Shown: in pieces, positions 1-64,000 of the stretch | Layout: the number at the start of each line of letters is the position of its first letter | Numbering within the stretch: the first letter of the stretch is position 1 | Assembly: GCA_030141605.1 (NCBI GenBank) | Contig: JAQGDQ010000473.1 | Location: forward strand, 25,053-89,052 | DNA: 64,000 nt | Direction of reading: 5' to 3' | Source: Tubiluchus corallicola | Lineage: Eukaryota; Animalia; Priapulida | Translations under genes and position numbers: made by a program | Notes under the pieces: generated by a model | Seen by the model: the letters and a program-made list of their open reading frames with translations, nothing else | What the model was told of the DNA's origin: nothing | Database searches by the model: none

Positions 1-188
1 GTGGCGCTAGCGGCGCTAATGGCGGGTAGTTCAAAACAAATTTGCTCGCAGATAATTTCATAAATATTTCAAGTTACTTCTGGTTATAGACTAATAAAAC
101 TCTAAAATATCAACGTATAAACATCAACATAAAACGTTTTTGTGAATATAAAGGCTACCGTATCTCGTATGCTGTATGGACATTGGCA

Positions 189-1085
189 ATGGTAAATACT
201 CGTAAAAAGTCACATACAGCTACAGATAGTGACACTGGGAGTAATATGGCCTCATCTAATAGCAGCTTAAACGAGGATACAGCACAGGCACTTCTTTCCG
301 CTTTTGAAAAACGACTGACAGCAATGGAGGAACGATTGGGTAAGAGGATTTATGACAATTCAGCATCTATAGATTCAAAACTTACAGAAGTAAACAGACA
401 AATAGGCGGACTTGTGAAAAGTCAGGAATTTATTTCAAAACAATATGAAGATTTGCAAGAACAGAATAAGCAAAATGAGGAAAAAATGAGAAATCTAGAA
501 GAGGAAAACAAAATACTGAAATGTACAATAAGCAAACTAGAAAAAAAAATAACTGCATCTGAAAAATCTGTGAATGACCTTGAACAATACGAGAGGCGTG
601 ACATGCTAGAAATTACAGGTATCCCTTTCATTGAGCATGAATCTACTAACACCATTATCAAAAGGCTTTGTGATGTCATTGGTGTACAAATAGCTCCTGA
701 AGATATTGCTACTTCGCATCGGCTGCAAAAGACAAGATCTGGTAGTGCTCCAGCAATTATCGTCAAGTTTGTACGACGCGACATCCGTGACAAAGTATAT
801 GCAGCCAGGAAACGAATCAACTCTGCTCACGACCTAGGCTTTTCAACAGTAAGCAAAATTTATATAAATGAAAACCTTACAAAGCAAAATAGATCCTTGC
901 TATACCATGCACGACAGTGCAAAAAGCAACTGCGGTACAAATATGTATGGTCTCGATATGGTCGCATCTATTTAAAGAGGTCTGACTCTGATGATTCTGA
1001 AGCAGTACCAATTGACTCTCTTCAAGTTCTGCTGAGAATGGGATATAACCCAGCCATGTCATCGCAGACCAATTCTCATCTTTAA
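189..1085 (+). CDS. LINE ORF1 (coiled coil plus RRM-like/CTD nucleic-acid chaperone)
   Basis: First ATG at 189 (track uses TTG at 183). Coiled-coil region, then NDLEQYERRDMLEITGIP, IIVKFVRR, IYINENLT and YKYVW motifs typical of CR1/L2-group ORF1. Confidence 0.88.
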   Translation: MVNTRKKSHTATDSDTGSNMASSNSSLNEDTAQALLSAFEKRLTAMEERLGKRIYDNSASIDSKLTEVNRQIGGLVKSQEFISKQYEDLQEQNKQNEEKMRNLEEENKILKCTISKLEKKITASEKSVNDLEQYERRDMLEITGIPFIEHESTNTIIKRLCDVIGVQIAPEDIATSHRLQKTRSGSAPAIIVKFVRRDIRDKVYAARKRINSAHDLGFSTVSKIYINENLTKQNRSLLYHARQCKKQLRYKYVWSRYGRIYLKRSDSDDSEAVPIDSLQVLLRMGYNPAMSSQTNSHL

Positions 1086-1117
1086 CCTTAATGTTGCACT
1101 TTTCAGTTATTTAATAT

Positions 1118-4100
1118 ATGGCATCTTATCCATGTACAGTCTGCTCTAAAGTCTGTAGGTCGAATCAGAATGCTATTTATTGTGACAACTGTCAGAATTG
1201 GTGCCATCTGAAGTGCACATGCCTATCATTACAACAGTTTCAAAATTTAGCTAATTCTAGTGATACATACTTTTGCTTGCCTTGCATTAATTCGATATTG
1301 CCACTTCAGATGGCAGACGATGATGACTTTTATGATTTTGTCCATTTTAGTTATTGCAATAGTGAAATTGAACAATTACTGTCACTCAACTGTACAGCTA
1401 GTTTGTCCTCGTTTAATGATGATGATGACAAAGATCCCGACATTAATCATAATACTCTGTATGATAGCAAATACTATAAACTCACCACGCTGCAGTCATC
1501 AGCCTTTTTGCACAACAATGATAAGGATTTTAGCTTCATACATATTAATCCCAATAGCCTTCACAAACACTATCATGACATAACAGATGTGCTTCAGCAT
1601 TTTAAGAGGCCACCCGACATAATAGCAGTGTCGGAAACTCGAGTTAACGATAAAAATATTTTTTTATGTAATATACCCAATTACACTTTTTTACATACTG
1701 ATTCTAATACAAGAGCAGGGGGGGTTGGACTTTATGTATCTAATCAGCTAAATTATACTAAAATCACAAAATACTCTATCCAAAATGCTAATTCATCTCT
1801 TACTTTCCAATCCGACATGCAGTGCGAAGATCTCTGGATACAGATAGAAACTAATATACATTCTAAGCATATTATCTTTGGTGTTGTTTACCGTCATCCA
1901 AATACTAACATTAATCACTTTCATGAGGCAATGGACAACATTATGTCCGACATTAATAAAACTGGCAAGATTAGTTATGTATGTGGTGATTTCAATCTTA
2001 ACCTGCTTCACCATGAAACTAAATCATATATATCCGAATATCTCAATATGGTATTCTGCAATCAATTCACACCCATTATAACACGACCAACTAGACTTAC
2101 TCACACATCCAAAACACTTATAGATCACATCTACACAAATAACCTAAAAGACTACATCATTCCAGGCATTATACTTTACCAAATCGCTGACCACTTGCCT
2201 ATCTTTTGCATTGTCAAAAATTCAATTAGTAAACGTGCGAACTCAAAAGTAAATATCCGTGACAAGAGTAAATTCAATCAAGACGCTTTCTTAAATGACT
2301 TAACTTATAAACTAAACAACGAATCTTTTGTGACAATGTCAACAAACGAAGCATTTGAAAAATTCATGAATATAATTACAGAAACTGTTAACTACCATGC
2401 CCCGTATAAAACCTTGTCGAGAAAACAAACTAAGACATTTTACAAACCCTGGTTAACTCAAGGTATCCTAACTTCTATCAGAAAAAAAAGTCAATTATAC
2501 AAAACTCATAAATTATCCGACAGTTTATACAAAAATGAATATTATCGTACATATTGTAATAAACTAAATCGAATAAAAGAACAGTCAAAACGTAACTATT
2601 ACTCAAAAGTGCTCCAAGGAAATAAAAATAATATGCGACTAACATGGAAAACCATAAATGAAATTACAAACTGTAAAGTGAAAAACCATTTTCAACCTAA
2701 CAAGTTAACACAAAATGGTAATGAGTACAATAACCATAAGGATATAAGTGAAATACTAAACCAGTTTTTTAGTAACATAGGTAGCAATATGGCGAGAAAG
2801 ATACCATACACTGAACTAAAATTTGATTCTTTTTTGAAGAACCCAGTAAATAGCACATTTTTTATGTACCCTATATTAGAAAATGAAACATGTGTGGAAA
2901 TCAATAAGTTAAACATTAATAAATCTGCAGGTCCAGAGAATATTCCAATTTATTTTTATAAACTAGCTGTCCGCATTATTACACCATACTTAACGACACT
3001 CTATAATAAATCGATTACTGATGGCATATTTCCTAACATTTTAAAACTAGCGAAAGTAATTCCAATTTATAAGTCTGAATCACCTGAAAATCCCACCAAC
3101 TATAGACCTATATCTTTACTCTCACCGGTTGCCAAAATATTTGAAAAACTCATCTTTATCCGGCTTGACAAATTCATTTCAACAAACAAAATACTATCAG
3201 AACACCAATTTGGTTTCAGGAAAAATCATTCTACTGCCTTAGCTGTATCTGAACTAACCGATAGAATTCTTAATAATATTGACAAAAATGTATTTGTGTG
3301 TGGCATCTTCCTAGATCTGTCCAAGGCTTTTGACACTGTACAACATAATATATTACTCCAAAAAATGAAACATTATGGTATTAGAGGACTATCCCAAAAT
3401 TTCTTTGCATCTTACTTGCACAACAGACAACAGTACACTTCCATTGGAGATACTAGCTCAAATCTAACTACTATAACATGTGGAGTACCACAAGGCTCTA
3501 CTCTAGGCCCGATATTGCTTCTTTTGTACATAAATGATCTTGTAAACTGTTCAAACTTCCACACTAGAATGTTTGCAGATGACACTAATCTATTCTTAAC
3601 AGATACAAAGATAATTAATTTACAAACTTCAGTTAACAGTGAATTGCATAAGATTAATCAGTGGATGAAAGCTAACAAACTGTCTATTAACTATAAAAAG
3701 ACAAAATACATGCTGATTACGCCTGGCCGCAAAACAGACGCATATGAAAATTTCCAGATTTCAATGAATAATCAAATATTAACTAGGTCTAAAGAAATTA
3801 AATACCTCGGTATGTTCATTGATGATAACTTAACATGGTCTACACAAACAAAACACATAACCTACAAAATTAGCAAAATCAAGGGCATAATTGCGAGGAT
3901 AAGACACTACGTAAATACAGATGTACTAAAACTAATATACCATGCTTTGGTTTATTCTTATCTTCACTATGGGATTCTTTCCTGGGGCACTGCATCTTCA
4001 AATACTTTAAAACCGATACAAACTCATCAAAACATTATAGTTAAGCTGATGACATTTTCTGGTAGACGGGAACATGCAACGCCATCCTACATTAAATTGG

Positions 4101-4408
4101 GCCTCTTAAAACTGAATGATATCTACAAATCCGAGCTTGCAAAATTTGTATACAAATTTAAGAATAACTTACTACCAGAATTGTTTCTAAATTACTATAC
4201 GCCAGCATCCGATATTCACAGTTACAACACTAGGTTTTCTACTAACAGTTCTTTCTTTATCGAACGATTTAATACATCTAAGGGTCAAACGTCGTTAAAA
4301 TATCAGGGATCAGTATTATGGAACTCTCTACCTGCTCATATAACTTCTTTACCTCTGCATTCGCTAAAAAAACAGTACGCTAAGGCACTTCTTGAAGCTT
4401 ACAAATAA
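1118..4408 (+). CDS. LINE ORF2: PHD finger + AP endonuclease + reverse transcriptase
   Basis: 1096 aa. N-terminal C4HC3 PHD (CTVC...CDNCQNWCHLKC...CLPC). APE motifs AVSET, GGVGLYV, VYRHP, CGDFN, TLIDHI, DHLP. RT motifs NYRPISLL, QFGFR, FLDLSKAFDTV, GVPQGS, FADDT, KYLG. Confidence 0.97.
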   Translation: MASYPCTVCSKVCRSNQNAIYCDNCQNWCHLKCTCLSLQQFQNLANSSDTYFCLPCINSILPLQMADDDDFYDFVHFSYCNSEIEQLLSLNCTASLSSFNDDDDKDPDINHNTLYDSKYYKLTTLQSSAFLHNNDKDFSFIHINPNSLHKHYHDITDVLQHFKRPPDIIAVSETRVNDKNIFLCNIPNYTFLHTDSNTRAGGVGLYVSNQLNYTKITKYSIQNANSSLTFQSDMQCEDLWIQIETNIHSKHIIFGVVYRHPNTNINHFHEAMDNIMSDINKTGKISYVCGDFNLNLLHHETKSYISEYLNMVFCNQFTPIITRPTRLTHTSKTLIDHIYTNNLKDYIIPGIILYQIADHLPIFCIVKNSISKRANSKVNIRDKSKFNQDAFLNDLTYKLNNESFVTMSTNEAFEKFMNIITETVNYHAPYKTLSRKQTKTFYKPWLTQGILTSIRKKSQLYKTHKLSDSLYKNEYYRTYCNKLNRIKEQSKRNYYSKVLQGNKNNMRLTWKTINEITNCKVKNHFQPNKLTQNGNEYNNHKDISEILNQFFSNIGSNMARKIPYTELKFDSFLKNPVNSTFFMYPILENETCVEINKLNINKSAGPENIPIYFYKLAVRIITPYLTTLYNKSITDGIFPNILKLAKVIPIYKSESPENPTNYRPISLLSPVAKIFEKLIFIRLDKFISTNKILSEHQFGFRKNHSTALAVSELTDRILNNIDKNVFVCGIFLDLSKAFDTVQHNILLQKMKHYGIRGLSQNFFASYLHNRQQYTSIGDTSSNLTTITCGVPQGSTLGPILLLLYINDLVNCSNFHTRMFADDTNLFLTDTKIINLQTSVNSELHKINQWMKANKLSINYKKTKYMLITPGRKTDAYENFQISMNNQILTRSKEIKYLGMFIDDNLTWSTQTKHITYKISKIKGIIARIRHYVNTDVLKLIYHALVYSYLHYGILSWGTASSNTLKPIQTHQNIIVKLMTFSGRREHATPSYIKLGLLKLNDIYKSELAKFVYKFKNNLLPELFLNYYTPASDIHSYNTRFSTNSSFFIERFNTSKGQTSLKYQGSVLWNSLPAHITSLPLHSLKKQYAKALLEAYK

Positions 4409-20884: not shown

Positions 20885-23314
20885 TTACAATTCATCATGA
20901 TCTCTTTCCATGTCCTCCAATGTGTAATCTGTTAGAGATTCATCTATGACTTCATCTAGTTCTTCAACTTCATTTGTATAGGATTCATCTAGAAAATCTT
21001 CATCATCACGAGCTTTACGTCCGGCTTCTTCTTCTAATTCTACGAAGTCTACACGTCGAACCTTCGGCAGCCAGGTATTTTCACCCAGCGACGTCCATGC
21101 TTCAATGTTTCCTTTCATAACGTCTATTATCCAAGAACTGATCACTTGCGATTCCAGTCTGGTATCCTTGAATTTGAAAATTTTGCCAGTTGTTTTTTGA
21201 ACAAGAAACACCACTGGAATTGAAGCTTCCTTATCATAGTGGTACAGTATTTCCGATGATAATTGGTAGTTTTCCTGTACGTCTATCCAGGCAAAAAGAA
21301 TCTCTGGAAACTGTTTCGACAATGCTACTTTACCAAAGGCATCTCTGTAATTTGCTGGCCTGGAATTGGAATCGAATAAAATCAGTAGCGCCTTTTTCTG
21401 ACCTACCAACTCGGGGTAATTTTTTGAGTTCAGCTGAGGAAATATGTCTTGCTTATTTACGTTGACAAACTCGACGAGTTCTTCCACAGATTTTACATCA
21501 GATGTTCCCACAAAAGGCTGATAAACGTCGTTCTTTTTAAACAGAACATAACTTGGATAAGGCAAGTCATACGTTAAAGATAATTCTTTGCCAATCTCTG
21601 GATCAATATTCAAGCCCATTATGATTTTACCACGTAACTCATTTGAAGCCTTTTTAAATAAACTAATTTGTTCCTCGTTGCATAGGAGACCCAATAATGC
21701 AATGTGTGAATCTGATTGTTGAAATATAGGCAGATTCATAGAAACAAATTTTTCTGTATCCAATTTATTCACCAAATTTACAGGTTCGCCTTGTTTAGCG
21801 AGAAATGCTGTATGAATGATTGTACCGCTATCGAGCATTCCCTTGTATGTTTGATGATAATCTGGATAAGCATTTATAGTAACTACTGGATATTCAAAAA
21901 CCAATTCTCTTTGGCAAACGTATGTCCATTCTCCACAGTTAACTTTTGTTAATGTAAGTTCTTTCCAACGTTCTTTTTTACAAGCATCTTCTAGCTTGTT
22001 TAACAAGTATTTACTCACATGGTCCCAGGGTTGATAAAACACAGTTACTATTACTTCATTCTCACCTGCAATGAGTGGAAATGTTTTGTCAGTTTGATCA
22101 AGTATGCACTGAGCTTCTCCGGCAAGAAGGGGTTGTTTTACTCTGTAAGCTGCAGCAAACACTGCATCTGCACTTTCAGTATCATCATAAATGATGTCAC
22201 CGGCACTGGATGAAACGTCAGGAATCGATATTTGTGACAAATTTTTCTTCTGGAACCACTCTAACCTGCTGCGTACCAAATTAAGAATTACTTTTTCATT
22301 AGGTTCCCACTCAGCAAACTCAATTGACTCGTCTCGCAGCTGTATGCCCATTACAGGGTGACTTTTAACATCTGTGCCAAATCCCAACTCATTCCAGTCA
22401 TCAAAACTCATGGCACTTGCATTCACTAAAACAACTTGTATTAATCCCTTGAACGCATCAATTAACATTTTCGCTGTACCGTTTAGCTCGGTGTACCAAT
22501 CTGTATAAATTAAGTAGACCATATGTATGTTCGCATAGGCCCTGAATGGCATCATTGGTGGGACATAAATAACAGGCTGTATTTCAAGACTATCAAAAAA
22601 TATCGATAAAGAATGAAGATTTATTTCATCATAGATAGGAGTAACACGGCAGTTGCTCATTTCGCACTGAAGATACCAAACACAGGCAGTAAAGCTAACA
22701 TCACAATTTTGTAGGTCTCTCACTACCTCCAAATCTGTGGCTATTGCAAATTGATATTTTTTTCTAGAGCTATCAGCAAATGCCACTTGTAAAAAACTTT
22801 TGTGCGCAATTGTACCTAACTCAGTCGCGTATAAGAGAAACATATCTTTTCTATTCCTAACTTTGTTCTCGAGGTTCCATCGAGCAACATTGTCGTGGAG
22901 TATTGGAACTTCCCGAATCAACCGCAACTGAAGAGCATTAGCAACAACAGAGTCTACATCAAACATGGTATCCACGGAAAATTTTACATTATCCCATCCC
23001 GATTTCAAAACATACACATAATCCTGTACATCTTGCTCCTCACAATACGGCAAAACATAGTGTTCTTTGCAATTTAGTTGGCCAAACTGCATCTGGTACG
23101 CGTCTAAAATAAGTGCAGATTCCTCAAAGACATTCATTATAGATGTTATTTCAGGAGTTACATCTTGATAAAAATAAACCAAGGCTGCATTACGTCTATT
23201 TGCAAAACCATCAAATTCGCTGGCATTAAGTTGTATTAAATAAGAGGACGTACCGATTTCACAGAAAAAAAGATTAAAAATTATTGACAGAAATATGAAA
23301 CAGTAAGCTGCCAT
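20885..23314 (-). CDS. TXNDC16: Thioredoxin domain-containing protein 16 (ERp90)-like ER luminal protein, single coding exon
   Basis: Likely ATG at 23314 (MAAYCFIFLSIIFNLFF signal peptide; the ORF extends to an ATG at 23359). Several Trx-like units without CXXC (VTVFYQPWDHVS; KVNCGEWTYVC...EYPVV; MFDVDSVVANALQ), an acidic tail and C-terminal HDEL. Confidence 0.82.
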   Translation of the reverse strand: MAAYCFIFLSIIFNLFFCEIGTSSYLIQLNASEFDGFANRRNAALVYFYQDVTPEITSIMNVFEESALILDAYQMQFGQLNCKEHYVLPYCEEQDVQDYVYVLKSGWDNVKFSVDTMFDVDSVVANALQLRLIREVPILHDNVARWNLENKVRNRKDMFLLYATELGTIAHKSFLQVAFADSSRKKYQFAIATDLEVVRDLQNCDVSFTACVWYLQCEMSNCRVTPIYDEINLHSLSIFFDSLEIQPVIYVPPMMPFRAYANIHMVYLIYTDWYTELNGTAKMLIDAFKGLIQVVLVNASAMSFDDWNELGFGTDVKSHPVMGIQLRDESIEFAEWEPNEKVILNLVRSRLEWFQKKNLSQISIPDVSSSAGDIIYDDTESADAVFAAAYRVKQPLLAGEAQCILDQTDKTFPLIAGENEVIVTVFYQPWDHVSKYLLNKLEDACKKERWKELTLTKVNCGEWTYVCQRELVFEYPVVTINAYPDYHQTYKGMLDSGTIIHTAFLAKQGEPVNLVNKLDTEKFVSMNLPIFQQSDSHIALLGLLCNEEQISLFKKASNELRGKIIMGLNIDPEIGKELSLTYDLPYPSYVLFKKNDVYQPFVGTSDVKSVEELVEFVNVNKQDIFPQLNSKNYPELVGQKKALLILFDSNSRPANYRDAFGKVALSKQFPEILFAWIDVQENYQLSSEILYHYDKEASIPVVFLVQKTTGKIFKFKDTRLESQVISSWIIDVMKGNIEAWTSLGENTWLPKVRRVDFVELEEEAGRKARDDEDFLDESYTNEVEELDEVIDESLTDYTLEDMERDHDEL

Positions 23315-23985
23315 CTTTTCGGCAGAAAAACTTGGCCTTCTAATTCGTATACGGCGCATAGGTGCGACATAATCGCAAGCACTGCGGTCTCGAGATATTA
23401 CTGAATCAGAACTACTTTATTATTTACTACGTAAAAAATATAAATAAATATATGTTATATATATATGATATATAAGTTATAAATTATATGTTATAAAAGC
23501 GGAAAGTTTTTTATAGTGTGAAGTGTAAGTTAAAATTGTTGCCTTTAATGTTTTGAAACCAATAGCCAGAAAATATAATATAGTGCTGTAATAATAAAAA
23601 ATGTAATAACCCAAACATATCAAAATGGAAGAAAATGTTAAAGATAGTATTATGAAATCTGTGAACTCAAAATATCAGCTTAAAATAGTAGGTAATACAA
23701 AACCAACATTTTTGCACAATACTGAATGGAAATATAAAACCTTATGTAATCAACAGGGTAGGCAGAAAATGATCTATCTACTGGCTACTACATATAAGAT
23801 TGAACACGATAAAGTCAGATGTAATATAGAAATAAGTACAAGGATAATATATTACATTCAATGTGCAAAAGAAAAAATGTGAAAACTCATTTGACTGTGA
23901 GAAAAACAAGCGAGGATTAAAGAGCCAGCAAATGAAATTATGTAGCAATGATATACATAAACCTGAACATATGGTCAAATATTTT

Positions 23986-24511: not shown

Positions 24512-37451
<12,940 letters not shown>

Positions 37452-38685: not shown

Positions 38686-53243
<14,558 letters not shown>

Positions 53244-57890: not shown

Positions 57891-60249
57891 AAAAACTCAA
57901 AGATGTCTCTAGAATTATGTTCAGCAAATTACAGACATTGTGGAATAAGCACAGCATACGTAACTTATAGTTTCAACAATAACAACAACAACATTTTGCA
58001 GACAGGCAGGCGGCCATGAAAACCTTCAGCTACTGCATTTGAAGTCTGGAAGAGAGCTACATGTCAATTTGCTTGTGTAAACGAAAAAAAAACTGCTGAT
58101 TCATTGTCGACACTTCTTATGAACGAGGGAGGTTGCCTGGCCACGCGAATTTATTTATGGCCATGAAAATCATTTTGATCACGAAAGAGACCAGATTTTG
58201 GGCCAAAAGACATGAAATTTTCTCGGTTTTTACTGTTTAAAAATTCGAATAATTTTGTTAAGATTAATCCTTCTAGATAGGAAACAATGTAGCAAAACTC
58301 AATGTTATTAAAACCCAGGTGTTTAGGTTAGGAATATTTTAACTTAACAGTAGTTTTACATGTATATTATCGCTTTGAAGTAACTTCAATGTACGAAGAA
58401 GTACAGGCGATAAACCTTTCAAACATATAGCACAATATGCTCTTCATTGTTTCACGCTCCCAAGGAGAAATGCAATTTGGGAAGGAATTTATTTTTTTGC
58501 ATCTGTATTTTGCAATAATTTATTTTTTATCTAATGAATTTTAAATTTTGATGAGCTTATTAAACTTAATGTGTAAAAATTACCAAAATTTAATTTATTT
58601 CAATAATGGTATTTCATTTGAGGGGGACACTGTTCCATGGTATGCAAATTTTTAACAGTCCTGCTTTATTCAACCTTAAATAGATAATTTGTTTAATTCA
58701 GTTTTAATATTAGGATGGCTGCAGCACGAAGCACTTCAAAGAAGTTAGCCTGTTCACACTGAATTAGTTTACTGAAACACCAGTTGGCACATGGCTGTAC
58801 TTGGGTGACCAACTCAACATTTTCTCATTGAATATAAACATCAATGGAAAATACCTTGTTGGGAATGAATCTGGTAATATGTGAAGTGAAATGAAAATAA
58901 GAAAATTCACCTCCCTTTAACAATAACATCGATTTCGCAGTACTTGTTGTTATCCATCCTCAGCGGTATAAAAGTTGCTTTACGTTTGATTATACTATCT
59001 TGACATTGTATAGAAAACAAGTAAAAAAACCAAACGTTTCTAATTCTGAGAACACTGATTAGCTAACGACTCCACCCTTTCTTGTTAAAATAGACCCTTG
59101 TAATACATCAAACGACGTCTATTTGTACATAAAAATCTGTTCAATTAAGTTTCCGACACTAAATTATAGTGTTTCAATAGGAACAATGACTGTGTGGTAT
59201 GATTTCGACTACTAATGGATTCTGTATGTGGCTGAAAAAGACAAATGGAAAGAGGACTAAAGAGAGAAGCAGATGGAAAGAGGACAGAGCATCCATGTGG
59301 GATGAGTAATGTATGGCAGGCAAGCTGGCATGTGTGTAGGCATGCATACATGCTGCCAGGCACTAATCAATACTTCGCATTCTGAACTAGTTTATAATTA
59401 AGTGAACTAATTACAGCTGTTGTGTATCACGTTTAGCCATTTAGTGTGCTTTTTATTTATTTTTCTAGAGTTCTGTGCAGATTTTTTTCTAAAAAAAGGC
59501 TGCAGAAAAGGGACCTCTTGTGCCTTTTTGCACGTGTAGCCACAGGTGTGTTTGTACATTGTTTAAGTATTCAGGTGAGTCATCTGCATGGCATCATGAC
59601 TCATATGAGAGACTGCATCAAGGATGAATTTTTTGGTGCAAGAGCATCAAGAAGCATGAGGTATTTATCTGATTCTAAAAAAGAAAAAATGCTGTCATTG
59701 TTAATGCTGTCATTGTATTCCTGGTTCATTGCGTATTTGGAAAAAGGGTACGATTAAGAAAATGCGCCACTCAAAAACTTATTTAACTTAACAACGTGAG
59801 TGATGTAAAGTGTCAACACTTGTTGAATGCTGCACATTTTCTTGAAGATGAAATGTATGACAAAGTAGCGAACCTTGGAAAGTCCTCACCAGCGATTTGA
59901 TCACTGACAAACCATTAGATGAGAAATGGACAATGTTTTTTTCTGGGTGTAAAGCACCAAATTTCTTCTGCATAGTTGCAAGGATACTAGCCATTGCCGT
60001 GAGCAGTGCATTTGTAGATAGAACAATCTCACTAATTAATAACCAATCAGCATAAAATAACCAAGAGGTCACAACTGCAAGCAATTATTGAAAGAGTTAA
60101 AATTGCAAGCTTGTGTGTAAAAAATGAACTTCTTAGAGCAATAGAATCCTTGCATGGAAAAATATGTTTGGGAGAATCCTTGACTTGTGTGGTCCTGCAG
60201 CAACTTGAGTTAAGTGTTGTTATAAAAGGCACAGGAAGATGTGATGATG

Positions 60250-60915
60250 CACAGACAATGGTAGTTGCACTGACATTATATTTAAATAGTCGATGTGCAT
60301 ATTCAGAACTTCATAAATATTTAGCTCTGCCTCACCCAAAAATCTTAACCAACAATACTACTAGACTCTCAGATGTTGGGTCAAAGGTAGAAGTGGAGAG
60401 AGTTCTCCTCTATTTTTTGGGACATCAGGTAAAAACTCAAAAAAACTTAACTTTTTGCTTGAAAGATATTTCAGTAAATGTATTTTTTTGGCCCACACAG
60501 TATCTAATATTAGAAACCACTGACCAAGATAAAATTGATACATTTATATGTTCATCCTAATACTGTACGTGGAACTATTTTTTTTACAACTGTAAAACAC
60601 ATATTAAAGATTCCATAAAGTCAATAACTTTATTTTAGTGCTGCGATTTTCATTTTTCATTCAAAATGCTGTTTGCTGTTTGATGAAGTCTATTTGAAGA
60701 CTAACCTTCGTTTCCGCGGAAGTCACGTTGTTGGACATGCAGCTGATAATACAGAGGAATTAGCAAAAACCGTTGATGGCTAGAAAGTCGAATGCTCTGC
60801 GCTTTGTTTCACTATTCAAAGTAAATGCACTTGAATTGTATACAAATTTACTTCAAGTTTTGAAAATAATTAAAAGTGTGGGAGGACATTGTGTAGCTAT
60901 AATGTCTGATAAATC
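60250..60915 (+). pseudogene. Decayed P-element/THAP9-family transposase fragments
   Basis: VALTLYLNSRCAYSELHKYLALPHP (60260-60340), CCLLFDEVYLK...VVGHAADNTEELAKTV (60667-60775) and VLKIIKSVGGHCVAIMSD, in canonical P-transposase order but interrupted. Confidence 0.8.
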
Positions 60916-62959
60916 AGTCTTGTGGTGGTCTGGCTTTCCCATAGCCATCCCTGTAGTGTCATTTTTTGTAAGTTTTACCCTATTTAAGTTTGGAACTGCC
61001 ACACGCCACACAACACATCAATAAGTGAAACGGAACAATTAATGATATTAGTTTTAATTATGTATGTAAATAATTTTGAGTGCAGATGACCATAATCTGC
61101 ATCGTGTTCAAGCCCAACCGGTTAGCAGAAAAAGTTGTTTTTGTGCTAAGAGATATCTCAACCCAAATGGATTTTGGAATTGCAACAGTTTTGTTTAGCC
61201 AGTCACGTATCTTTTTTCAGGATCTGAATTCTGATTGAAGACTACGAGTGGCTTCCTTTCAAATCAGAAATACTGTCAAAATACCTGTGCTGAATGACCT
61301 GTGATATGACTTTATTCGTCATTCTAACGTCTTGACCTTGTTCTGCACAGACGTGCATATTTGTCGTGGGGTGCTGGCCTGGCAGACATCTTGAAATTGA
61401 TGAGAAGTAATATTTTTGCAGAAGTTTCGTACAGACGAACCAAAGTAGTTTTACCATAAACTCATCACCATAAACATATACACTGTGTTTGGGACAAGTT
61501 GGAGTCCACTAAATTCAAATTGCGGATGGTTACTGAAAGGCTCCTACTTACGAGCATCGAGTTGTCCTGTAATCAGCTCGTCAACGTACGTGAATAGGTT
61601 TTATGGTTGAGAATGGCAGAACAAATCATTCTACATCAAAGGTTAAATGGTCCCAGGATTTGGGAGGTCAAAGTCTAGCCATAGTGCAGACCGGAGTTAG
61701 CTAGAGTGGAGAAATTCTACCCACAGCAGAGACAGTGGTTAATCAAGTGGAGCCAAAATAGAAATCTGATTTTGAAAATATTCTATTTTATTTTATGATG
61801 AAATGACTTTGGAAAATTGGCTGTTATTTAAGCACGACCCCTTATACTGATTTGCTCTACATATATTATCAAGAAAAGGTTTGTTTTTTCTAATATGACG
61901 TTGATATCTGCTTATCCTGGGTTAGCTGCGGCATGTGGTTGATAGAACATGTACATAATCATGCAAACCAAAATTATGATCAAAATAAACACAGGACCAA
62001 AACAAAATTGTCAATGCCATGCTTTTATTAGTGTCACCTAGATAACAATGGGAAGAGTTATCCCAGCACTGAAATCTTATCAAGGAATTCCGGTGTAAAG
62101 GAAGAGGTCGACATTCAAAATCCAAAGGAGCAAGAAAGAGAGGTCACCAAGAACAGGAGACAAAGAAAAGCACAATCCCTCAACAAGCCCAATCAACAAT
62201 GAAAGAAGCCCAACTAGTGAATCTCTTGGAGGAGAGGAGCTTGAGAAGATATGCATAAGTCTGCCATGTGTCAATTAGAAGTTCATCTAACTCTACAAGA
62301 GAAAATGAGAAATCCAAAAAGTCCCACGATCCTGTAAAATGAGTGAGCGATTGAATGTTCCCATTATTCCTTAATAAATCCAATACTCTTTTCCAGTAAT
62401 CATCCACTACTCCAATTTTTGCAATAGGCAAACACTTCCGTGGAACAATTGCTGGTATTTTTCAACAGTTGTGTAATCCAATTTAATAGTAAACATAAAC
62501 TTACAATGTAAAATTTGCAATGAAATTGTGAATTATATGAGAGTGCAGAATAGTAGAAACTATCAGCAAGCTTAGAAAAGTTTGTAGAAAAAGCATCTTT
62601 TGTAAAGTAAGTTTGTGCTGCCAGGTTAGAGAAGCATAAGTCAGATGGCCTAACTGCAAACTGACTAAATAAAAGTGTCAGAGTGCAGATAGCCTAGACT
62701 CATGGACATTCTGACAAAGGTTACCAAAAGATGTAATTCATTATTGAAGTTGTACATCGTAGTACTACATAAGTACTAGTATTTTGTTTAGTTTCTCTAC
62801 ATGCTGAGCTGCAAACAAATGTGGAAATGACAGAAAAATGGAGGTGGCTACATATCCAAATGTAAGCAAATTTTGCACGAATAGCAATGCGAAACTCAGC
62901 ACTTTGGAAAGAAGAACTTCTCATACTAACTTTGCTTACGTTGATTCTAAAGAAGAACT

Positions 62960-63200
62960 TTTTGAAGAATGGCAAGAACGACTGAATCTAGGAAAGGTAA
63001 TACAGAGGTTTACAGTGGTTACTTATGCTTTTATGTAAAAGTGCCCCCAGCTGCAACAATACATTTATTAGCTCCTACTGGTGTGACTGAGTTTAACATT
63101 GGTGGAGATACGATATATTCTAGTTTGCAGATTTCTAAAGGAAATATAAATGCACTTAGTCCTGATGCATTAAATACGTTACTTGCTCAAAATGGCTGCC
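62960..63200 (+). pseudogene. PIF1/Helitron-type helicase fragment
   Basis: LLAPTGVTEFNIGGDTIYSSLQI resembles the PIF1-family APTGxAAxNIxGxTIHS motif; no intact Walker A. Confidence 0.7.
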
Positions 63201-63282
63201 ATTATTGGTTGGAAATAATATTCACAAAAACGTGTTAGCTTTCTACGTATAAACAGAGGTAGATATGTGTAGAAAACTAATC

Positions 63283-63336
63283 ACACAAAGACGCTCATTA
63301 ACATTTTGAAACAAAGGAATAGGATATTGATAAGTC
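63283..63336 (+). other. Phenuivirus segment terminus ACACAAAGAC plus 54-nt viral 5' UTR
   Basis: acacaaagac at 63283-63292, 54 nt upstream of the N ATG. ACACAAAG is the conserved Phenuiviridae terminal sequence. Confidence 0.8.
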
Positions 63337-64000
63337 ATGTCCCAGCAGCAGAAGAAAACAGCCAGCGAGCAAGACGTTCAGAGATTCATCCTGGCATCCT
63401 TAGAAGACGTTAATATAGAAGATCTGAAGAAGGATGCCAAAGACATGATGGAGTTAGTAAAATTCCAGGGCTTTGATCCTGTGGAGACTGCACGTCAAGT
63501 CTTGGAATATAGTGACTGGGGTACTGGTGATGCCCCAATGTCAGATGCCTTGAAGGATGTATCCAAGATGATAGCCCTATTCCAAGCGAGAGGATCTAAA
63601 ATTGTCAATAAGTCTGGACAAAACTTTAGAATGAGTGCAGATGGGGTTAGTAGAGTTACTAACCTTATATCAAAATATCACATCGTGGCATCAGGAGGAG
63701 GACAACATGCAAAAGTCCTAACCCTACCAAGGATAGCTTTAGCTTTCTCTTACATCACATGTCAAAACTCTTACACTCTTCTTCCCGAGTCTGATACTCT
63801 CAGGCAACTCACTTGCACCGCACCAGTCAAACAGACAGCCTTTGCCAGTTTGATACCCAATGATATTGAGAATGAAGCAGATTCCACTAGGAGCATGGTG
63901 ACCACATTAATGTATGCCCATGCATATTGCATGTATGAATTAGGGAAGATCATTGGGGGAAATAAGAAACTCAGCCAAAGGCAAAGAGTGGATGAGGTGA
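63337..64000 (+). CDS. Endogenous viral element: Phenuiviridae-like nucleocapsid (N) protein, 3'-partial
   Basis: Hand-translated 221 stop-free codons: MSQQQKKTASEQDVQRFILASLEDVNIEDLKKDAKDMMELVKFQGFDPVETARQVLEY...KDVSKMIALFQARGSK...MSADGVSRVTNLISKYHI...LTLPRIALAFSYITCQ...AFASLIP...LMYAHAYCMYELGKII. Motifs are collinear with phlebovirus N (YQGFD, KDAKKMI..RGNK, MSKEG..LINKY, LTLSRV..TCQ, FAGM, DAH). Confidence 0.9.
   Translation, partial: MSQQQKKTASEQDVQRFILASLEDVNIEDLKKDAKDMMELVKFQGFDPVETARQVLEYSDWGTGDAPMSDALKDVSKMIALFQARGSKIVNKSGQNFRMSADGVSRVTNLISKYHIVASGGGQHAKVLTLPRIALAFSYITCQNSYTLLPESDTLRQLTCTAPVKQTAFASLIPNDIENEADSTRSMVTTLMYAHAYCMYELGKIIGGNKKLSQRQRVDEV

Follow-up and report, generated by a model that had tools for sequence, protein, structure and literature searches.

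A young, segregating phenuivirus-like nucleocapsid insertion that begins at the exact viral terminus, and the RNA from which it may have been copied

When a non-retroviral RNA virus leaves a copy of itself in an animal chromosome, which RNA molecule was copied? Whether mRNA or genomic RNA gave rise to such EVEs usually has to be argued indirectly, because the junctions are old and the UTRs lost. A locus at the right-hand end of the window (the whole stretch of Tubiluchus corallicola DNA that we analysed, 64,000 nt) offers a more direct view: it joins a segregating insertion and its empty allele to an exact viral terminus and a spacer of leader size, so that the template question becomes testable at single-base level. 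The features on which our argument relies are collected in Table 1.

Table 1. Features around the insertion, in window coordinates
Feature	Position	Strand	Remarks
Host flank, decayed PIF1-like helicase (Helitron-like)	62969-63270	+	ESM Atlas and weak PDB match; a lead rather than a firm assignment
Reversed 9-of-10 look-alike of the spacer, left flank	63235-63244	-	Local score 8; bears on a templated-filler origin
Left breakpoint	63270/63271	.	Last base common to the empty allele is 63270
Spacer AGAAAACTAATC, candidate cap-snatched leader	63271-63282	+	12 nt; absent from the empty site and from the viral terminus
Conserved phenuivirus segment terminus ACACAAAGAC	63283-63292	+	Exact left boundary of the viral sequence
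Complete viral 5' UTR, terminus included	63283-63336	+	54 nt; ATG at 63337
Phenuivirus-type nucleocapsid ORF	63337-64000	+	221 aa, open at the window end; Pfam PF05733, PDB nucleoproteins

A nucleocapsid reading frame in animal DNA

The setting of the locus is animal-like: besides tandem repeats and a LINE, it contains exons of phosphoglucose isomerase (PGI) and of ATP synthase beta as well as a TXNDC16-like ORF. The ATP synthase beta exon lies at 31215-31601 (+) and the PGI exon at 49937-50326 (-), the latter with matches of 65-82% across all life. The TXNDC16-like frame (20885-23416, -) runs uninterrupted for 843 codons in an intron-rich region and is either a single-exon gene or a retrocopy; no close relative of it was found among 7436 candidates. 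At 60036-60560 (+), in a multi-copy stretch, there is a weak match to a P-element transposase HTH (E 0.007, below the cut-off). Hemocyanin matches of the ORF upstream of the insertion were rejected as the sum of weak repeats. The LINE-like element (90-4408, +) carries an ORF1 with Baculo_FP-like domains and a 1097-aa PHD-endonuclease-RT frame free of stops, and is a possible source of reverse transcriptase. The flank immediately left of the insertion resembles a PIF1 helicase in the ESM Atlas (feature scores 0.94-0.95; PIF1 on 51% of the members of the rank-2 cluster) and, in the PDB, AAA ATPase 8bnv over residues 33-55 (E 0.056); Pfam gave no PIF1 match at E≤1, and the frame is broken by stops and frame changes.

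The reading frame at the window end matches Tenui_N (E 1.8e-14, 54.3 bits against a cut-off of 25), and all 12 PDB sequences that it matched are nucleoproteins (E 9e-8). At E≤0.001 it has 51 relatives among 1.84 billion representatives, with identities of 25-38%; four of the 20 clusters looked up have names, namely a Daphnia nucleoprotein, a thrips virus nucleocapsid, a sea-spider protein and the N of Precarious point virus. Other searches for N relatives were negative, whether by word index (0 of 218 candidates), in the ESM Atlas (no usable match) or by scanning viral contigs (0 of 6 and 0 of 16 stretches). In a tree of 53 sequences the protein has a long branch (1.18) and weakly supported neighbours (0.76), and for these reasons we claim no genus. 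Genera in Phenuiviridae are defined by L-protein phylogeny, and the 64-kb window holds no L sequence. These comparisons point to a phenuivirus-like lineage so divergent that none of its relatives exceeds 38% identity. One related metagenome contig (L002) has an ambisense-like layout, with an N-like frame at 30-956 (+) and a 375-aa frame at 1114-2241 on the opposite strand.

The viral terminus and the insertion junction

The original prediction, made from the letters of the window, had placed a viral segment end 54 nt before the N start, had held that the whole 5' UTR was retained, and had taken the motif as support for the protein assignment. This observation holds, and more strongly than could be seen from those letters alone. 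The decamer ACACAAAGAC is identical to the segment ends published for wenriviruses (OWV1) and uukuviruses in the relevant part of PMC8652140, while tenuivirus ends, as given in part of PMC8148189, differ from it by one base. At nucleotide 1 the copy begins with the 5' terminal ACACAAAG(A/U)C expected of a Phenuiviridae-derived EVE. As a lone word the decamer would prove nothing, because 0.32 copies are expected per shuffled window and 30 of 100 shuffles hold at least one; the window itself has no second exact copy. In the 150 nt before a given ATG, on a given strand, the 10-mer would be met by chance with a probability of about 1.7e-4 and the 8-mer with one of 0.003. The motif stands at no end of two related contigs (L001 and L002, 2 of 352 stretches), both of which apparently lack their own ends.

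Contigs from public sequencing runs (X1 to X6) add what the window could not provide. The stretch was found in four of the six runs, from two studies; X1 and X2 come from the same sample and X4 from the other study. Five of the six runs entered the contig comparison (X3 was left out), the contigs of X5 do not cover the N gene, X6 (RNA by our guess) gave no contigs on the stretch, and the N-gene evidence comes from X1, X2 and X4. Junction evidence consists of contigs throughout, and depth, which is no copy number, served only to check the graph. In X1, X2 and X4 the same contigs span the 5' UTR and the N ORF. Three upstream contexts are available from these contigs, all different, and all three switch to viral sequence exactly at 63283 with nucleotide 1 of the terminus kept, so this base is the true viral boundary. 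A faulty assembly of the junction, or a chance occurrence of the motif in host DNA, would have the expected frequency of the bare 10-mer in its favour; against it, the filled junction is bridged in X1 (by a 72-nt unitig) and in X2 (by a 1002-nt contig), and copies in another study begin at the same base. We regard this explanation as exceedingly improbable.

The same runs contain the empty allele. In X1, X2 and X4, and thus in both studies, the host match runs through 63270 and is followed by other letters, the first 30 of which are identical. In X1, a flank contig (depth 186) leads into a common 64-nt piece, 63207-63270 (387), from which two branches leave: one is the filled junction, 63241-63312 (218), the other a path whose letters differ (182). 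Filled and empty paths are both present in X2, where the filled contig begins at 63241, 42 letters left of the terminus. In X4, one contig equals 62910-63270 exactly and continues for 438 further letters, and none of its four contigs on the stretch shows a filled junction at this site. The viral copy thus lies in host chromosomal DNA. Had the motif been part of the pre-insertion site, the empty allele would carry it; over the first 30 letters of its continuation it lacks both the motif and the 12 nt before it. A second structural difference lies 64 nt left of the insertion, at 63206/63207, where the alternative path in X1 and X2 is unrelated before 63207.

Unitig lengths give the size of what was gained and lost. 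At a word length of 31, the 72 nt of the filled junction unitig resolve into 30+12+30, leaving exactly 12 nt that neither side accounts for. On the empty path, the corresponding unitig measures 82 nt (30+22+30) in X1 and X2 and is unbroken in X4, from which the filled allele would rejoin the host 22 nt downstream. From these lengths only, we infer that the target site suffered a deletion of about 22 nt without duplication.

Further copies, and the age of the insertion

There appears to be more than one viral copy. The N contig of X1 starts exactly at 63283 at a depth of 374, twice that of the flank, and has a second predecessor (depth 120, 66 nt, with 6 unique letters before a branch) that differs before 63283. 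This second predecessor was not seen in X2, where N stands at 1.5 times the flank depth. The N contig of X4 has 29 further letters before 63283, different again. On the right, the N contigs of X1 and X2 each run 242 letters beyond the window and then stop, giving a common unit of about 960 nt, long enough for an ORF of at most 301 aa; that of X4 is 16 letters shorter, perhaps because of a break in the graph.

Filled and empty alleles show no difference over 62910-63270, and the viral copies are near-identical: over 718 nt, one position separates the window from X1 and X2 and four separate it from X4, and two of the three differences between the X4 and the X1 copy are synonymous. It follows that the insertion is young, and it is segregating as a presence/absence polymorphism. 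Between the window and the X1 flank contig there are 4 differences in 5.2 kb, and the window may be another haplotype than X1.

Could the copies descend from a single integration that was later duplicated as DNA, by Helitron capture or by segmental or tandem copying, with the 12 nt as flank of the donor site? The site resembles a decayed PIF1/Helitron-like sequence, to which other copies in the genome are related, and tandem multi-copy bunyavirus N EVEs are known from the account of odin in part of PMC6620529. Moreover, the N contigs of X4 reach depths of 159-234, which is 13-19 times the depth of 12 seen for the empty flank, in a library that contains host intergenic DNA, an excess that fits both amplified DNA copies with one flank and RNA of a live, 99.4% identical virus. 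Duplication should, however, have carried a common flank along, yet the three upstream sequences diverge immediately left of 63283, and the host element is decayed. We hold this origin to be improbable.

Twelve bases and the choice of template

The original prediction had also suggested that the 10-20 nt before the terminus might be a fossil cap-snatched leader. Part of this stands: in the range of 10-15 nt expected for a non-viral 5' stretch absent from the pre-insertion site, 12 nt were found, with 30 letters of the empty continuation visible. The first two letters ('GT') of the 14-mer proposed at the time belong to the host. Phenuivirus leaders are given as 12-14 nt in part of PMC11162785, and the section of PMC5735111 on rice stripe virus describes mRNA with a 12-nt leader ending in C12, followed after realignment by the full terminus. 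More generally, phenuivirus mRNAs carry host-derived caps, are 3'-truncated and have no poly(A) (PMC12641553), and RNA-virus EVEs are described in part of PMC2987831 as generally covering single transcripts, consistent with mRNA templates.

That the 12 nt are a host leader, and viral mRNA the template, is a plausible reading which we favour by a modest degree of belief. It is favoured because the length of the spacer and its final C fit the published leaders and their prime-and-realign mechanism, because the layout is the same as that of rice stripe virus mRNA, and because all three contexts keep nucleotide 1 and differ before it, as a variable leader that buffers the terminus would predict. 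It is also favoured because the left side offers no exact template for the spacer: the longest common words are 5, 6 and 7 nt within 50, 200 and 1000 nt (P 0.67-0.77). Nor does the window contain another copy of the spacer at 0 or 1 mismatch. A common trans-spliced leader was rejected, since the three upstream sequences differ. The spacer is enclosed by a 5-bp inverted match (63266-63270 against 63283-63287), an arrangement found at 0.25% of host sites, for which we see no supportable mechanism. In the open-access literature, covered mostly through titles and abstract openings, we met no description of an EVE that preserves a cap-snatched leader; supplementary figures, for instance Figure S1 of PMC2987831, may be relevant here.

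Several points weaken the leader reading. Both flanks hold imperfect reversed look-alikes of the spacer, and no clear leader of 12-14 nt is seen at the other two junctions. Copying from the 3' end of genomic RNA would likewise yield exact termini, and at about 960 nt the unit could also be a whole small segment. Copying may have begun at the terminus on genomic-sense RNA rather than run through to a 5' end. The main competitor of the leader reading, which we consider rather unlikely, is a full-length genomic or antigenomic RNA template, on which copying began at, or jumped onto, the negative-strand 3' end, the 12 nt being filler that was untemplated or was copied, imperfectly and reversed, from the break ends during end joining. 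This accounts for the exact termini at all three junctions, and the inferred deletion of target site, rather than its duplication, suggests end joining. The size of the unit fits a whole N-only segment: the contigs of relatives are mostly 0.9-1.4 kb, small phenuivirus segments range from 0.8 kb upward (PMC12641553), and the S1 segment of OWV1 is listed at 1164 nt in part of PMC8652140. The look-alike in the left flank has a local score that random host sites reach in 6.4% of cases and shuffled spacers in 8.2%; a second one, found by eye and with one gap, lies where the right break end is inferred to be, over letters 22-30 of the empty allele, with a chance of 3.8%, and 0.4% for both together, a post hoc figure for which 30 letters of the empty allele are visible. 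On the other hand, the left side holds no exact template although the insertion is too young for drift, filler of exactly leader size ending in C would be a coincidence, and genomic RNA is encapsidated while mRNA is not, as stated for orthotospoviruses in part of PMC8148189.

On balance, we see the locus as a young, polymorphic DNA copy of a phenuivirus-like N RNA from its terminus on, with viral mRNA as the somewhat likelier template and the 12-nt leader probably copied along with it. On this mRNA origin, a virus of an unsampled lineage would have infected germ-line cells, where its polymerase would have used a 12-nt host leader with a final C as primer for N mRNA, and prime-and-realign would have restored ACACAAAG. 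A host reverse transcriptase, probably LINE-derived, would then have copied the non-polyadenylated mRNA through to the leader, and the cDNA would have been joined into a break in the dead PIF1/Helitron-like sequence, about 22 nt being lost and the target site not duplicated. The same process may have occurred more than once, with different molecules. More tentatively, and with the odds in our view somewhat against it, an unsampled phenuivirus-like lineage could be entering the germ line repeatedly and currently, one mRNA molecule each time, such that every junction bears a different cap-snatched leader.

Implications and known systems

An important aspect of the retained terminus is whether it still works. 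The suggestion that a transcript of this locus could carry a viral cis-signal that works found no support: the end would be internal in any host transcript, and the candidate leader and UTR form no special structure on RNA folding (z 0.19 against shuffles). A working viral promoter is unlikely because the terminus would be internal and, unless the far end is complete, unpaired, and because the region folds no better than shuffles. The copy is probably inert as a viral signal, and any role would be that of a candidate source of small RNAs or of N protein. The wider interest lies in the junctions themselves. If mRNA molecules have indeed entered repeatedly, each with its own leader, they would be a heritable DNA record of cap-snatching, which would identify the template of a non-retroviral endogenisation and prove viral transcription in host cells. 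For genome scans, a general rule would follow, namely that a terminus preceded by 10-15 bases foreign to the site marks mRNA-derived bunyavirus insertions.

Several known systems share features with this locus. Like the phlebovirus/phenuivirus N EVEs of Ixodes scapularis (described in part of PMC2987831) and Daphnia, it is a chromosomal copy of a Tenui_N gene corresponding to one viral transcript. Unlike in those cases, the exact terminus, the whole UTR, the empty allele and the 12-nt spacer are resolved here, and the protein, on its long branch, is 25-38% identical to any relative. Odin, a phasmavirus N EVE of Chaoborus (parts of PMC6620529 and PMC8963322), is likewise a multi-copy bunyavirus N in an invertebrate genome; by these accounts it is fixed, about 78% identical to its virus and without identifiable UTRs, whereas the present copy is polymorphic and has kept its terminus. 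EBLNs, the LINE-1 retrocopies of bornavirus mRNA treated in part of PMC2987831, offer a parallel in that a host retroelement copied a nucleoprotein RNA and viral signals were kept. In that source they have poly(A) and target-site duplications, in contrast to the target-site deletion inferred here and to phenuivirus mRNAs, which are described in PMC12641553 as having no poly(A). Finally, wenriviruses and uukuviruses (PMC8652140) share the identical decamer and, in S1, an N-only segment of similar size, unlike the protein itself, which is just 27% identical to the N of the uukuvirus Precarious point virus. Overall, a bunyavirus EVE is a known kind of insertion, and the present one is unusually young and well resolved; it is in this resolution that it is new.
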